A stretch of 10,245 bases of DNA, taken from the IMG/VR virus record IMGVR_UViG_3300022188_000009. One strand, written 5' to 3'. Made by a program: the position numbers and the translations under genes. Below the pieces are notes generated by a model, which saw nothing but the letters and a program-made list of their open reading frames with translations, was not told where the DNA came from and searched no databases. Of this stretch, positions 464 through 10,147 are shown piece after piece (the first letter of the stretch is position 1; each line of letters opens with the position of its first letter). The DNA is from a virus. Lineage: Duplodnaviria; Heunggongvirae; Uroviricota; Caudoviricetes.

Positions 464-549
464 GCAGTGAGAGATTTCGGTTACTTCTAATGGATAAAAG
501 CACCGAGTCTTATTTTTCTCTCAATTATTCGTTTCGTTAGTACAAGTAA
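455..549 (+). ncRNA. Structured motif RNA, candidate minimal Y RNA (copy D)
   Basis: Perfect 10-bp outer stem AATAATTGAG(455-464)/CTCAATTATT(540-549); CAGTGAG 465-471; inner stem AGATTTCGGT/ACCGAGTCT; TACTTC 482-487; TTCT 536-539. Same architecture as 5442-5521 and 5559-5635. Confidence 0.65.
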
Positions 550-626: not shown

Positions 627-668
627 ATGGCTGACGGAATCGTAAAATGGTTTAACGATAGCAAGGGT
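627..668 (+). CDS. cspA: Cold-shock domain protein, exon 1 (MADGIVKWFNDSKG)
   Basis: Strong RBS, then 14 codons matching the CspA-family N-terminus (G.VKWFN..KG). The frame hits TAG at 669-671, the first bases of the intron. The symbol is family-level only. Confidence 0.93.
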
Positions 669-974
669 TAGTTAACCAAGGCTCTTGTAAAACTGGATAA
701 ATTGCTGGAATATTCTTTCGAGAACAATCAGCAGCCAACCCGTGCAAGTAAGTATAAACGCACAACCAAGCCCAGAGGCACGGAAGGTTCAGAGACTAGT
801 CCCCGAGCGAAAGCAGTAATGGGGCCACGAACATCCAGATCTTGTAATAAACGTTTCGGAAAAGATGAATATGCAATAAAATTTCCACTCTTACAAGATA
901 AGATATAGTCCGACCTGCATATAATACATAAATTGCAGAATCATGGGATAAAGAGCCCGTGAGATAACATAATG
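669..974 (+). mobile_element. Group I self-splicing intron, 306 nt, no homing endonuclease ORF; probably subgroup IA
   Basis: 5' exon ends in U668 and the intron ends in G974. P1 AAGGGT(663-668)/GCTCTT(681-686) with U.G at the splice site; P10 AACCAAG(674-680)/TTTGGTT(975-981); P3 CTGGAT(693-698)/ATCCAG(833-838); P4 TTGCTG(702-707)/CAGCAG(729-734); P5 with a UUCG loop; R element GGTTCAGAGACTA(786-798); S element AAGATATAGTC(900-910) forming P7 GACTA/TAGTC; extra hairpin between P7 and P3' (P7.1-like); P8 ATCTTGTAA(839-847)/TTACAAGAT(891-899); P9 CTGCA/TGCAG; TCATGGG/CCCGTGA. Confidence 0.95.
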
Positions 975-1133
975 TTTGGTTTTATTCAACGTGAAGACGA
1001 AGACGATGTATTCGTTCATTTCTCTGCAATTGCAGCGGATGGTTTTAAATCTCTCGCAGAAGGCGACAAAGTTACTTTTGGTATTGAGCCTGGGGCTAAA
1101 GGCCCAGCTGCTACCAATGTAGTAAGAGTTTAG
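975..1133 (+). CDS. cspA: Cold-shock domain protein, exon 2 ([52 protein letters not shown])
   Basis: Joining 668 to 975 gives an in-frame 66-aa CspA-type protein with RNP1 KGFGFI, RNP2 VFVHFS and the C-terminal KGP.A.NV motif; TAG at 1131-1133. Confidence 0.95.
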
Positions 1134-1147
1134 AATAAACTTGTAAA

Positions 1148-1207
1148 GCAGTGACAGATATTATCAAGCTATACTTCTAGTAAGTTAGCTGGCTTGTATA
1201 TTCGTCA
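1148..1207 (+). ncRNA. Diverged copy of the GCAGTGA...TACTTC hairpin motif (copy E)
   Basis: GCAGTGA 1148-1154 and TACTTC 1172-1177. TACTTC lies 3' of a stem arm (AGCTA/TAGCT, CAAGC/GCTTG); TGAC/GTCA closes the element. It lacks the CGGT/ACCG core and the long outer stem. Confidence 0.4.
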
Positions 1208-2275: not shown

Positions 2276-3895
2276 ATGGCTATTAATAGTAAAAGAGTAA
2301 TCCCATTGAAATTTGATAAAATGAAAGAGGAAGCTCATGTAAACTTTATGGGCGGACCTTCATATGATGTTAAATCCCCTCTGTTGAGGCTTATATGCAT
2401 GTCAGCGTCGTCTTTCTTCGGAGAACCGTCTTACTATAAGGGTATGCGGTCTGAACGTAAAAAACAGCATTTATTGGTTTCTCATAAACAATTACCATAC
2501 GTTGAGCGAAAACATATCCGCGAAGTACTTAATGCAATTGATGATTATGGGTGGAGAAATCTTTCCACGGCCGAATCAATGGAGAAAGCAGTTATGGAAG
2601 CTTTGGACTATGACCCTGAAGCCACTCTCCAGTGGGCAGTGACATTACGACGTGATGAGTTTATACGTACTACACCGCAAGTAATACTTGTTATGGCCGC
2701 AAATCATCCAAAAGTAAAAGGTACTGGGCTGATTCGAAAATATGCCCCTGGAGTTATTGCCAGAATGGATGAGCCTGCTGTACAGCTTGCATACCAGCTT
2801 GATAGGTTTGGAAAACCGATCCCTAATGCTCTTAAAAGGGCTTGGGCAGATGCGTTCAATAAAGCAGGAGAGTATCAGTTATCAAAATACCGTATGGAAA
2901 ATCGTATTGTGAAAACGGTTGACGTAGTAAATATGGCTTTTGGAAAAGGTGCGTATGGATTTGAAAATGCTGTTGGTAAACTCGTGCGTAATGAGCTATC
3001 TCTCGGTGATGGTTACCAGACATGGGAGTCAATCCGTTCTGGTGGGGGTTCGTGGGAAGAAGCTATTAAAGTGATGGGGCACATGGCTTTACTTCGTAAT
3101 ATTCGTAACCTTGTTAGTGCTAAAGCTCCCACTGAACTGTGGTTGAAAAAGCTCGTTGCTACTGCTGCCGGTGGTAAACAACTTCCATTTCGTTACTTAT
3201 CTGCACATAATGCAAATAAAGAAGCACCTGGACACGTTTTGGACGCTATCGAAGAGTGTATGGAGATTTCCGTAGGTAATTTGCCAACTCTTAATGGACG
3301 TTCTCTTATACTGACAGATAATTCTGGCTCTACTCACGGAGGCTCTGTGTCAGAGTTAAGTACGATGAGTGTAGCTCAAATTGGAAACCTTATGGGAGTA
3401 CTTACTGGTATGGTTTCAGATGAAGGTGTAATGGGTATATTCGGTGATAAACTTGAGTACTTACCTGTTCGTAAAAAAGCCTCTATCATGGATCAAACTA
3501 ATGAGGCCACTCGTATTGGTAAGAACATTGGTGGAGGTACTGAAAATGGTGTGTGGTTAGCTCTTGATGATGCGATCCGAAATAAAAAGCATTGGGATAA
3601 TATCTTTATTTATTCAGATATGCAGGCAGGCCATGGTGGATTGTATGGAAAAAATCCTGATAACTACCGAAAATATTGCCTTGGTACCAGGTATATTGAT
3701 GTGCCTTTACTTATCCATGATTATCGGGCGAAAGTAAATTCGAAAGTTAACGTATTTCTTGTTCAGACTGCTGGGTATGAAGACACCTTGCTACCTGAGT
3801 ATTACGACCGTACGTACATCATTGGTGGTTGGTCTGGAAATATTCTCAAGTTTGCGAAGAGGATGATTGACACCGCAGATCAATTTTTACAGTAG
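2276..3895 (+). CDS. rsr: Ro60/TROVE-domain RNA-binding protein with C-terminal vWA domain (Rsr-like), 539 aa
   Basis: AAGGAGG RBS. TROVE-type motifs (N-terminal NFMGG, HMALLRNIRNL, KQLPFRYLSAH), then a vWA MIDAS DxSxS (LTDNSGS), GGGT and IFIYSDMQ. Length typical of Ro60 orthologs. Confidence 0.92.
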   Translation: MAINSKRVIPLKFDKMKEEAHVNFMGGPSYDVKSPLLRLICMSASSFFGEPSYYKGMRSERKKQHLLVSHKQLPYVERKHIREVLNAIDDYGWRNLSTAESMEKAVMEALDYDPEATLQWAVTLRRDEFIRTTPQVILVMAANHPKVKGTGLIRKYAPGVIARMDEPAVQLAYQLDRFGKPIPNALKRAWADAFNKAGEYQLSKYRMENRIVKTVDVVNMAFGKGAYGFENAVGKLVRNELSLGDGYQTWESIRSGGGSWEEAIKVMGHMALLRNIRNLVSAKAPTELWLKKLVATAAGGKQLPFRYLSAHNANKEAPGHVLDAIEECMEISVGNLPTLNGRSLILTDNSGSTHGGSVSELSTMSVAQIGNLMGVLTGMVSDEGVMGIFGDKLEYLPVRKKASIMDQTNEATRIGKNIGGGTENGVWLALDDAIRNKKHWDNIFIYSDMQAGHGGLYGKNPDNYRKYCLGTRYIDVPLLIHDYRAKVNSKVNVFLVQTAGYEDTLLPEYYDRTYIIGGWSGNILKFAKRMIDTADQFLQ

Positions 3896-3902
3896 GAATA
3901 AT

Positions 3903-3933
3903 GGGGCTGTGGGTTCCTCAGTCCCTTTATCTT
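3903..3933 (+). terminator. Probable intrinsic terminator after the TROVE gene
   Basis: GGGGCTG(3903-3909)/CAGTCCC(3919-3925) stem followed by TTTATCTT, 7 nt after the stop codon. Confidence 0.6.
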
Positions 3934-4696
3934 ATGCAAAATTGAAGGTTGTGGAGGGTTTTGAGGCGGACTTTGAAACCGTTGTGAAATCCAAATGGTT
4001 ACTCAGGAGGGAACAGAAACTTTAAGTAATGATGAGTAGTATGCTTGCGTTTCAACGCGGAGGAAGGGAAGGGTATTCAGGACATTTCGACCTGAAGAAT
4101 TAGCATTCGAAACTTGTAACTTAAGAGTTCTCTCGGTAACTGTATATTATATGTGGCAAATCATTAGACAACAAGTGACTACTTTACCACTAAGCTACAA
4201 TGTTATTAACGTATGTATATGTGTGTAAAACTTCAATGGGTTTGAGCATTTATGGAAATTTAATTTTTTATTATGTTTATTCGGAGATCAATATAATTAT
4301 ATTAAATTAATAAATTTACTTGTGAACGCAAAAGAAATTCGTATCAGTGAAACATATGTACAGCGTAATATATGAGTAGTTTGAGGTATCAGAAAGCGAT
4401 GTCGATACCTGATATTTTATATTAGGGATGGTTTGTAAAATAACTACCAGATAGCATAGACAAGGGATAATGCGTCTGATGAGCGTAATCATTTTGTAAT
4501 TAAGTGCCTTCTGTGGGTTTCTTGTCAGTTCCTGGCCCACTTTTTAATAGAAAGACCGGGGTACCCCTTGGTCAATCTGATATTTACATAAAAGGGAAAC
4601 TGTCTGATTACTTGATGATTTTTGTTGGAAAAAGCGTGAGTTCGAATCTCGGCAATGGTAGAATAAATTTTTTCACATATGTAATGTACGCCAAAA

Positions 4697-4855
4697 TGTG
4701 GAGTATGTCAGAGCATTTGAGGGTAAAACATTTCAGTAGACTAAAACCGGAAAATCCACCAACAAGAGATGCCGGACTACTGGGGCCTGAAAAGTAAGTT
4801 CTCAAGGATGGGGCATGGCTATTTACAGATCAGGGTTCGAATCCCTGCTCCACTA
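4697..4855 (+). ncRNA. tRNA-like structured RNA with a large domain in place of the D-loop and no anticodon arm
   Basis: Perfect T-arm CAGGG-TTCGAAT-CCCTG (4831-4847) followed directly by CTCCAC (4848-4853), which pairs with GTGGAG (4698-4703). T8/A9, then D-stem TGTC(4706-4709)/GGCA(4812-4815) and A14/G15. No CCA is encoded. Confidence 0.5.
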
Positions 4856-4872: not shown

Positions 4873-5175
4873 ATGAGTCAAGAAAAATATATTACCGGCA
4901 CCGGACAAGTAATTTCTGTACATACTGCAGATAAATGTGCCGGCAGACATTGTGTTATACATAACCCGTCAAATCATTTAATGAAAGATTGGCCTACTCA
5001 TTGGAGGGCAGACAGGGGTATAATGGAAAGAATGTGTTCTTGTGGTGTAGGTCATCCAGATCCGGACGACTTAGCTTACAAGAAAGCTGTTGCAGAAAGA
5101 GATGGAAAGAAATATTATGATACTGGTATACATGGTTGTTGTGGTTGTTGCATTGGTAAGAAAGCACCTGGGTAG
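4873..5175 (+). CDS. Cys/His-rich hypothetical protein (100 aa), probable metal binder
   Basis: AAGGAG RBS; motifs C...C..H.P..H, C.CGVGHPDPD and HGCCGCC. The stop codon overlaps the tRNA 5' end. Confidence 0.8.
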   Translation: MSQEKYITGTGQVISVHTADKCAGRHCVIHNPSNHLMKDWPTHWRADRGIMERMCSCGVGHPDPDDLAYKKAVAERDGKKYYDTGIHGCCGCCIGKKAPG

Positions 5176-5253
5176 GTGTGCCGAATGGTGAAGGCAGCGG
5201 ACTGTAAATTCGTGACAATAGAAACGTTGGAGGTTCGAATCCTCCCCCGCCCG
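5170..5253 (+). tRNA. tRNA-Tyr (anticodon GTA), class II; CCA not encoded
   Basis: Acceptor GGGTAGG/CCCGCCC (one A-C mismatch); D-arm TGCC-GAATGGTGAA-GGCA; anticodon arm GCGGA-CTGTAAA-TTCGT (GTA 5204-5206); 15-nt variable region; T-arm GGAGG-TTCGAAT-CCTCC; G at the discriminator. Confidence 0.8.
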
Positions 5254-5441
5254 CACGGCGTTCAAAATAGAATGCTATGACAGGCCCTGGTTATGGATTT
5301 TTAATACACATACTAGGGCCAATTGTTTTTTGCCACGTATGAAAAGGCGTGGCACAATACATAATATCTTTTTATAAGTTGTTTGTTGTATTACCTCCTT
5401 TTGAACAGGTAAGTATGTCTGTCTCGGCCATGCTTACCACA

Positions 5442-5521
5442 AGGGCGAAGTGAAGGAAACGGTTACTTCATTAGACATTTAATCTAAATAGATCATCTAC
5501 CGTCTCCAATTTTCTCGCCTT
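5442..5521 (+). ncRNA. Structured motif RNA, candidate minimal Y RNA (copy A)
   Basis: Outer stem GGCGA(5444-5448)/TCGCC(5515-5519) extended by G.U and A-U pairs; AAGTGAA; inner stem GGAAACGGT(5455-5463)/ACCGTCTCC(5499-5507); TACTTC 5464-5469; internal hairpin TTAGA-7nt-TCTAA; TTCT. Confidence 0.65.
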
Positions 5522-5558: not shown

Positions 5559-5635
5559 TTTATAGACGCAGTGAGCTACGCGGTTACTTCATTTTTGGTA
5601 TGATAACACACCGCATGCGTGTTCTCGTCTATAAA
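5559..5635 (+). ncRNA. Structured motif RNA, candidate minimal Y RNA (copy B)
   Basis: Perfect 10-bp outer stem TTTATAGACG(5559-5568)/CGTCTATAAA(5626-5635); CAGTGAG; GCGGT(5580-5584)/ACCGC(5610-5614); TACTTC 5585-5590; TTCT 5622-5625. Confidence 0.7.
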
Positions 5636-6660: not shown

Positions 6661-7257
6661 TAGATTAGCCGGTATGGCCACATACTAACTGACAGAGGGT
6701 TTAAACAACGACACCCATCAGCAAGAAACATCTGTGTAATTAAAAAATGTGCGTGGTCCTGCCGAAAAGAATTAGCTATAAAAAAGAATATCTTTTGATT
6801 CGAGTGTTAACTAAATTACTCCAATAAGAGAAGTTCTTTTTTACCATGTAATAAAATATACTTTGTGGAGAATAATTACCTTTATTACTACATTATTAGT
6901 TTTAAATATACAACGTTGACGAAGCTTAATTTGCCTCTAATAACATGATAGTGAAAACTATTAACATTCTTAGTTGCTGCCTAGTTCTCCGTTACAATTA
7001 TAAACAATTTTGCTAGAAATAAGTTAAGCATTCTATGAAGCAAAGGATTTTTATTATAGATCCATTTGGCGAGTAGGAAAATCACGGCGTGATACCCGAA
7101 TGCTAAGTGTATGTGTTACCGTTTATGATGTAATTTTGCTTACGACATAAAATACATGACAATATATATAGGTTATTACTATATTTACAATGTTAAAAAC
7201 AGCAAGAAAACTGATTAAGCACAGTGTACGCGTGGGAAGGGGTGGGCATAGTTTTAA

Positions 7258-7346
7258 GCTGAATACGCCGGATGATTATGATGCAGGTTGAATAAACCTG
7301 TTAGTTATACCGGCAGTTCAGCACAAGAAGACTCAATAGAGAGTCT
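7258..7346 (+). promoter_or_regulatory. Structured leader or small RNA upstream of the 7376 gene
   Basis: Nested stems GCTGAA/TTCAGC, GCCGG/CCGGC and GCAGGTT/AACCTGT, then hairpin AGACTC/GAGTCT (7329-7346), ~30 nt before the GTG start. Confidence 0.35.
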
Positions 7347-7375
7347 AACTTTTTCAAAGTGCGGAGGGAGGTGAA

Positions 7376-8458: not shown

Positions 8459-8977
8459 ATGAAGTATCAAATTAAACTTGCTTTGATCGTGATTTTTGCA
8501 GTTTTTACCGGATGTGTCGGACTACAACAGGTAAAAAATACAGACAATACGTTTAATGTAATAGTCGAGGCTCCTAAGTGTTCCAAAGAACAAATCTTTA
8601 ATGGCACAAAAATTTGGATAGCAGAGAACTTTAGCTCAGCAAAAGCAGTTCTTGAATATGAAAATAAAGATTCAGGGATAATAATAGGTAATGGTGCCAT
8701 TCCTTACCCATGCAGTGGGCTAGAGTGCATGGCCACAGGAGCTTGGAAAATACCCTTCACAATGCGAGTAGATATTAAAGATCAGAGATTTCGTCTAACA
8801 TTTAGCAATATTAAACTTGTATGCCCACCTTCAAATAGTGGAATGTTTGTTAGCTCTGGGTATAATGGGCCTATAAACACTCAAAGCAGGTTTGACTCAG
8901 TTAAACTTGAACTTTTAGAATTTGGTAATGAAGTTTTATGCTTTCTCAGTAAAGAAAACAACCAGAAAGATTGGTAA
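8459..8977 (+). CDS. Lipoprotein (172 aa), DUF4468-like
   Basis: Signal peptide with lipobox-like FTG-C at residue 19. The segment SKEQIFNGTKIWIAENFSSAKAVLEYENKDSGIIIGNG resembles DUF4468 (recalled, not searched). Confidence 0.75.
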   Translation: MKYQIKLALIVIFAVFTGCVGLQQVKNTDNTFNVIVEAPKCSKEQIFNGTKIWIAENFSSAKAVLEYENKDSGIIIGNGAIPYPCSGLECMATGAWKIPFTMRVDIKDQRFRLTFSNIKLVCPPSNSGMFVSSGYNGPINTQSRFDSVKLELLEFGNEVLCFLSKENNQKDW

Positions 8978-9514: not shown

Positions 9515-10147
9515 ATGCCTATACGAACAATACTTTATGGTGGTGCTTTTGATATGCCTCATATTGGTCATAAGAATATGGCAACACAGACTTTAAGGTT
9601 TATGTCAAAAGTTAGTGGTTACAAGGAATTATGGTTTTTACCGCGTTCTTCAGATACACTAGGAATTAAAAAACCAGTAGCAGATAACCACAGAGTGGCA
9701 ATGTTAGAAATTATGACCAAAGAGATGCTTAACTCTCCCCTTTTTAGTGTATGTACTGACGAACTTGAAATGACAAGTAGAGCAGGTACTTATGCTGTAG
9801 TTAAAGAGTTAATAAGAAATTATCCAGAAAGAAAATTCTGCTATCTTATGGGTAGTGATCAGGCTAAGTCTATTAGGTCTTGGAGGAATAGTAGGAAACT
9901 TATTATGACTATACCCTGTGTGGTTGTTCAACGTGCTGGTATATCTAACTGGAATCATAATTATTGGTATTATAGAGCCCCACATACTTATATTGACGGT
10001 AAACCAACTAAGACACCAATGTCTTCTTCTGCAATCCGTCATGATTTTAATAACAACTGGGATAAGTTGAAAGCAGATAGACATATACATTTACTTCGTA
10101 ATATTCATAAATATATTGTAAAAAATAAATTGTATCAAGAAGCTTAA
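9515..10147 (+). CDS. nadD: NadD-like nicotinate/nicotinamide mononucleotide adenylyltransferase (HIGH nucleotidyltransferase), 210 aa
   Basis: GGAGG RBS; GGAFDMPHIGH (HxGH), R.AML, LMGSDQ..SI.SWRN and MSSSAIRH (SxTxxR-like) motifs in NadD order. Confidence 0.85.
   Translation: MPIRTILYGGAFDMPHIGHKNMATQTLRFMSKVSGYKELWFLPRSSDTLGIKKPVADNHRVAMLEIMTKEMLNSPLFSVCTDELEMTSRAGTYAVVKELIRNYPERKFCYLMGSDQAKSIRSWRNSRKLIMTIPCVVVQRAGISNWNHNYWYYRAPHTYIDGKPTKTPMSSSAIRHDFNNNWDKLKADRHIHLLRNIHKYIVKNKLYQEA

Follow-up and report, generated by a model that had tools for sequence, protein, structure and literature searches.

The window, i.e., the whole stretch of 10,245 nucleotides of viral DNA analysed here, is phage-like: its sizeable ORFs all lie on one strand and several of them match PHROG families. 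It harbors a csp gene whose coding sequence is interrupted by an insertion that we assign, from its sequence, to the group I introns. The csp locus comprises the following features.

466-487 (+ strand), 5449-5469 and 5570-5590: copies of AGTGA-N7-8-GGTTACTTC, a candidate phage promoter or regulatory element
615-619, + strand: Shine-Dalgarno sequence GGAGG, 7 nt 5' of the csp ATG, read off the sequence
627-668, + strand: csp exon 1, 14 codons (MADGIVKWFNDSKG); its last U is the U of the P1 U.G pair
669-974, + strand: group I intron of 306 nt, beginning with an in-frame TAG and ending with G974; no endonuclease domain
672-908, + strand: intronic open frame of 78 codons plus stop, a remnant overlapping the ribozyme core, with homology to the C-terminal end of HNH endonucleases from related introns; contains ORF 702-908
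674-686, + strand: internal guide sequence; 674-680 is the P10 partner of exon 2, 681-686 the P1 partner of the exon 1 end
975-1133, + strand: csp exon 2, 52 codons plus TAG (FGFIQRED...VVRV), with a Pfam CSD match
1211-1242, + strand: intrinsic terminator closing the csp transcription unit, a 13-bp stem followed by a T run

The csp gene and its neighbourhood

Joining of 627-668 to 975-1133 yielded, in frame, a CspA-type protein of 66 amino acids. Exon 2 alone matched the Pfam CSD profile (PF00313) at positions 14-65 of 66 with an E-value of 6.6e-21; since the match begins at CSD position 14, the absent part equals exon 1 exactly in length. The predicted spliced product aligned gap-free over positions 1-66 of a profile made from 87 uninterrupted csp homologs of 65-67 amino acids, and scored 131.9 bits as compared to 98.2 bits for exon 2 alone. 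The exact, in-frame 66-residue join proposed in the initial annotation is thus confirmed by a fit from end to end. The predicted product contains RNP1 (KGFGFI) and RNP2 (VFVHF) within a full-length CSD and is, by this domain, assigned to the CspA-type RNA-binding proteins. An uninterrupted homolog, P0003, has the same first 18 residues, including the 14 encoded by exon 1 and the junction; over exon 2 both proteins are 81% identical. Neither exon is disrupted by a stop or a frameshift, and the TAG at 669-671 is in frame with exon 1.

The claim that the ORF list misses this gene entirely had to be corrected: exon 2 is listed as an ORF of 53 amino acids (972-1133), which starts at the last three bases of the intron, ATG. 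Public gene calls contain exactly this truncated protein (P0001). Automatic annotation systematically mis-calls intron-split csp genes in this way, with a 53-amino-acid product that opens at the final intron triplet.

Three copies of AGTGA-N7-8-GGTTACTTC were counted in the window, compared to zero expected from 200 shuffles, and each copy is located upstream of a gene. The first copy, with a spacer of 8 nt, lies at the start of a conserved long csp leader, and a similar sequence was found 5' of csp in two contigs of other phages, L001 and L006. The motif is a candidate for a phage-specific promoter or regulatory site. Furthermore, the Rfam cspA thermoregulator was considered and rejected. It scored 79.9 bits in L001 and 52.3 bits, under threshold, at window positions 915-1195; the model covers coding sequence and therefore provides no evidence of a thermosensor leader.

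Upstream of csp, a gene for a CCA-adding enzyme was found in the source contig and in relatives. Downstream, positions 2276-3895 encode a Ro60/TROVE-like RNA-binding protein of 539 amino acids (also found in L010:47-1456), which matched Pfam TROVE with 29 bits and phrog_850 with an E-value of 2e-33. A tRNA-Tyr gene with anticodon GTA and a long variable arm is located at 5170-5254. Together, csp and these three genes resemble a module for RNA metabolism in a large phage.

Additionally, T-arm-like sequences (GTTCGAATC) were observed downstream of the Ro60-like gene at 4632-4655 and within 4698-4853. The second one reads CAGGG-UUCGAAU-CCCUG, and the CUCCAC behind it is able to pair with GUGGAG at 4698. 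The element 4698-4853 received no call from ARAGORN or Rfam apart from a weak mascRNA-like match (E = 0.9), and a search for a Y-RNA-like gene beside the Ro60-like gene gave nothing significant; the element could be a tRNA-like Y RNA of the YrlA type. The predicted ORF 4504-4797 may be spurious. Two adjacent ORFs, 1454-1708 and 1727-1972, are small paralogs with 54% identity which match PHROGs of unknown function. Two stretches of 600-700 nt, 3896-4503 and 6661-7375, contain no coding-strand ORF of ≥60 amino acids, no RNA family, and no notable repeat. Positions 8459-8977 encode a DUF4468 protein (TBP-like fold) and positions 9515-10147 a cytidylyltransferase-like protein that may be a nucleotidyltransferase acting in NAD metabolism.

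Limits and fold of the intron

The search with Rfam Intron_gpI (RF00028) suggested in the initial annotation gave 54.3 bits at an E-value of 8.3e-12 over positions 631-930, a small margin of about 4 bits over the gathering score of 50. Rfam placed P1 at 635-654, within exon 1. This assignment was rejected, as the pairing 663-668/681-686 gives a U.G pair, a contiguous guide, and an exact exon join; because of the misplaced P1, the limits of the Rfam match are not those of the intron. P1 is formed by AAGGGU (663-668) and GCUCUU (681-686), its splice-site pair being U668.G681, and P10 by UUUGGUU (975-981) and AACCAAG (674-680) with 7 bp. The last intron base, G974, is invariant in all nine aligned members. 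Four observations set the limits at 669-974: the exons join exactly, a related phage has the site empty, U668.G681 and G974 mark the 5' and 3' ends, and a single contiguous guide serves P1 and P10. The insertion point lies between codons 14 and 15, within the RNP1 motif (KG/FGF, with the slash marking the junction). Judged by these sequence properties, 669-974 is a group I intron in csp.

The initial annotation had also recommended a search for csp genes broken at the same position. Eight further csp introns were found at the same KG/FGF boundary in other uncultured phages; they form, together with the window copy, the nine-member alignment used for covariation analysis. The core helices have the following positions in the window.

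693-698/833-838, + strand: P3, enclosing P4, P5, P6, P6a, the 5' strand of P7, and P7.1/P7.1a
703-708/728-733, + strand: P4, from unguided RNAalifold
713-716/721-724, + strand: P5, from unguided RNAalifold
734-736/786-788, + strand: P6, from unguided RNAalifold
740-745/778-783, + strand: P6a, from unguided RNAalifold
792 and 794-798, + strand: P7, 5' strand, within the region enclosed by P3
800-803/821-824, + strand: P7.1, extra hairpin
807-808/813-814, + strand: P7.1a, inner GC/GAAA/GC hairpin
839-847/891-899, + strand: P8 with an internal extension (region 839-899), from per-sequence folds
906-911, + strand: P7, 3' strand UAGUCC, preceded by the conserved J8/7 AAGAUA; the core segments fit the Rfam consensus
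915-919/934-938, + strand: P9
941-947/956-962, + strand: P9.1, with the family-wide motif GGAUAAAGAGCC as its loop

Unguided RNAalifold of the nine members recovered P3, P4, P5, P6/P6a, P7.1, P9, and P9.1, with compensatory changes at 25 of 53 pairs. A manual model, which adds the P7 pseudoknot and P10, consists of standard pairs in 459 of 469 cells (97.9%) and shows compensatory changes at 27 of 56 pairs. Neither the pairing nor the compensatory value of this model was attained in any of 1000 column shuffles, a control which overstates the significance because the nine introns are related. When the 3' partners were slid by one or two columns, pairing fell to 31-42%. The structural call of the initial annotation, a group I intron in the RNP1 motif with P1 and P10 derived from one guide, is correct and now backed by comparison of relatives.

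Per-pair counts revealed compensatory changes in P3, P4, P5, P6a, and P7.1, in the latter at all four pairs. The P10 pair 977-678 follows the Phe codon: it is U-A in members with UUU and C-G in most of those with UUC. P1 varies on one side only (GCUCUU vs. GCCCUU) because its exon side is invariant. Five pairs of P7 are invariant; the pair 792-911 is G-C in four members, G-U in one, and A-U in four. P8 varies in length, and its outer stem is kept by compensatory changes; for example, U843-A895 of the window is C-G in L020, L017, and L242. Two members with a short core, L016 and L259, carry a 5-bp hairpin in the place of P8; the window copy is of the long-core type. In the window copy itself, every listed pair is a standard one, P2 is absent, and J1/3 is GUAAAA. 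The folding energy of the single window sequence was no better than that of shuffles (z = -0.80) and is uninformative. Conserved core helices P3 to P9 including the P3/P7 pseudoknot were found with support from covariation. Subgroup IA is marked by an additional hairpin between P7 and P3'; by its P7.1 hairpin at this place, the window intron is classified as phage subgroup-IA style.

Related introns, empty site, and endonuclease

The truncated csp product was used as search query, and other CSD proteins of 53 amino acids starting with MFGF revealed further split csp genes. These contigs contain a 14-codon exon 1 ending with AAGGGT, the insertion, and then TTYGGNTTY. The insertions at this site comprise about 247 nt (L259), 254 nt (L016), 306 nt (window), 686 nt (L006), 756 nt (L242), 769 nt (L020), and 772 nt (L017); partial copies were found in L261, L014, and L235. 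Translation of the joined exons gave a 66-amino-acid product in five of five cases (window, L016, L006, L020, and L017). The window intron was identical in contigs from four samples, and its core showed 82% DNA identity to that of L020. An exact 23-mer of the intron core was absent from IMG/VR, and no phage record nearly identical to the window was found. At the gathering threshold, Rfam missed two relatives with ORFs, L006 and L009, which were therefore recognised by alignment. A junction-specific pattern gave 10 matches in IMG/VR, two of them real csp introns on contigs of 127 and 189 kb. The same pattern gave 64 chance matches and no real csp intron in 185,579 species-representative cellular genomes, which is weak evidence of absence since the pattern is narrow.

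The 141-kb IMG/VR contig L001 of a related phage carries an uninterrupted csp with a similar leader, and its counterpart of exon 2 is 75% identical. Direct DNA comparison showed the same bases as in the window across the junction, AGCAAGGGT/TTTGG, and the L001 record gave no RF00028 match. With L001 and P0003, both intron-containing and intron-less alleles of one site were found among related genomes.

The P1 loop of L020, L017, and L242 contains an ORF of 214-216 amino acids, confirmed by Pfam as HNH in L020 and L017 (E about 1e-10). The ORF continues through the guide and the entire core and ends at a TAG in J8/7; therefore, about 75 of 216 codons, roughly one third of the endonuclease, are written over the ribozyme core. 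In L006 (2318-3003), the P1-loop insert is reduced to a remnant, and a different HNH ORF of 150 amino acids, confirmed as HNH, is located in the P5 loop. This arrangement suggests that endonucleases invaded the intron twice, one after the other.

In the window intron, the frame 672-905 showed 62% amino acid identity to residues 142-216 of the L020 ORF, i.e., to its last 75 residues. The frame 672-908 gave no Pfam match and contains no HNH domain; rough arithmetic with uniform codons gives a chance of about 0.02 for an open frame of 79 codons. The sequence TTAAC is found on both sides of the insert in L020 and once at that place in the window. Because the window frame is still open and resembles the tail of the L020 enzyme without its HNH part, we infer that the window intron arose by deletion from an ancestor with an endonuclease, a direction of loss read from the compared sequences. 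A domain search of the window detected no HNH, GIY-YIG, or LAGLIDADG gene near the intron. Relatives at the same site encode HNH enzymes and the window copy encodes none; the lineage would therefore be mobile and the window copy a non-autonomous derivative.

The P9.1 hairpin with the loop GGAUAAAGAGCC followed by GAUAA was found in at least 116 IMG/VR contigs and at least 120 metagenome contigs. Its stem had at least four of five pairs in all 247 matches listed, with stems that covary and differ in sequence, and among these matches only two (L235 and L242) precede csp exon 2. More than 230 group I introns (L023-L258) share this hairpin and GAUAA near the 3' end and reside in many different genes; csp is a rare target of this family. 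The HNH ORFs in relatives, the intronless csp of L001, and this large family in many genes point to the csp intron as a selfish mobile element.

Splicing, mobility, and relation to known introns

Taken together, the insertion in csp is very probably a selfish group I intron of an HNH lineage, predicted to splice, whose window copy has lost the HNH part. We infer splicing of the window intron and homing of its lineage from its sequence and that of its relatives. After transcription, the guide 674-686 would pair with the end of exon 1 to give P1, including U668.G681, while P10 would form with the first bases of exon 2. Transesterification initiated by guanosine would then remove 306 nt and ligate AAGGGU/UUUGGU, which would restore the CspA-type protein. 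Unspliced mRNA would be translated for 14 residues up to the TAG at 669-671. The lineage would home by means of its intron-encoded HNH endonuclease; after loss of the HNH-coding part from the P1 loop, the window copy would not be mobile by itself and would still shield its site from cleavage.

That two unrelated csp fragments merely lie on either side of spacer DNA has practically no probability. The Rfam score, barely over the gathering threshold, would be compatible with such a chance arrangement; the E-value of that match, the exact join at a codon boundary, and homologous insertions with covariation at the same site in at least eight other contigs argue against it, and the unguided fold and the covariation counts have effectively refuted it already. 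It also appears very unlikely that the intron is a decayed remnant, dead for splicing, and csp a pseudogene in the window phage. Loss of the endonuclease part is what would be expected at a late stage of the homing cycle, and the unremarkable folding energy would fit as well. However, decay is hard to reconcile with a core in which all pairs are standard and J8/7, P7, and the terminal G are intact, with exons of full CSD score flanked by an intact Shine-Dalgarno sequence and terminator, and with an intron sequence that is unchanged between four independent samples.

The initial annotation had called splicing an all-or-none switch for the protein. The in-frame stop holds; the switch is generic to any intron in a coding gene, and nothing indicates regulation. 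We consider it very unlikely that splicing is gated by temperature or by RNA chaperones, possibly Csp itself, such that Csp synthesis is controlled. In assays of group I intron folding, CspA family members work as RNA chaperones (PMC3017892), csp has a long conserved leader, and the intron persists unchanged in four samples without an endonuclease, all of which would suit gating. On the other hand, no sequence feature sets the window intron apart from ordinary selfish introns, and bacterial and phage group I introns commonly have an in-frame stop close to their 5' splice site (PMC3984707). Same-site relatives carry homing endonucleases, a related phage has the intronless allele, and the intron family occurs in many unrelated genes, with csp accounting for two of the 247 matches listed. 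Coupling of chaperone production to RNA folding, in which the intron would misfold in the cold unless assisted by Csp proteins of host or phage and would thereby gate or feed back on Csp synthesis, is likewise very improbable. If true, it would explain the retention of an endonuclease-less copy in csp; a feedback loop between a chaperone gene and a chaperone-sensitive ribozyme is attractive, albeit unsupported.

With the selfish, splicing-competent intron as the preferred reading, csp, a small RNA-chaperone gene, joins the phage genes known to harbor group I introns. Several steps of the homing cycle are represented at one csp site: empty, with an HNH ORF in the P1 loop, with a remnant plus an HNH ORF in the P5 loop (L006), and ORF-less. 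The csp introns constitute material for studying the co-evolution of intron and endonuclease; a new mechanism is not revealed by them. Among bacterial and phage group I introns, both ORF-less ones and ones whose endonuclease ORF overlaps the core have been described (PMC3984707). No intron in a csp gene was known to the initial annotation, and full-text literature searches likewise found no published csp group I intron; csp is not among the host genes in a 2014 review of bacterial and phage group I introns (PMC3984707).

Several other phages carry introns with DNA similarity to the window intron. The psbA intron region of cyanophage S-SRM01 matches intron bases 9-80 with 78% identity, and TerL introns of Streptococcus thermophilus phages as well as introns of crAss-like phages match P9.1 and the 3' end domain with 72-88%. 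In all of these, similarity is confined to ribozyme parts, and the introns reside in genes other than csp.

Subgroup-IA introns of phages are located in conserved protein genes, as in td, nrdB, and nrdD/sunY of T4 and in Staphylococcus phage Twort, and the DNA polymerase intron of Bacillus phage SPO1 carries the HNH enzyme I-HmuI. No DNA similarity between the window intron and introns of this type was detectable in the phage collection, where the matches were to other phages. The window intron resembles them in its compact ribozyme, the extra hairpin between P7 and P3', the stop just inside the intron, its position in the best-conserved part of a protein gene, and the HNH endonucleases of its relatives. 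It differs from them by its location in csp and by the absence of P2 and of an endonuclease. The intron is of a well-known phage kind, in a host gene, csp, for which the literature searches found no earlier report.
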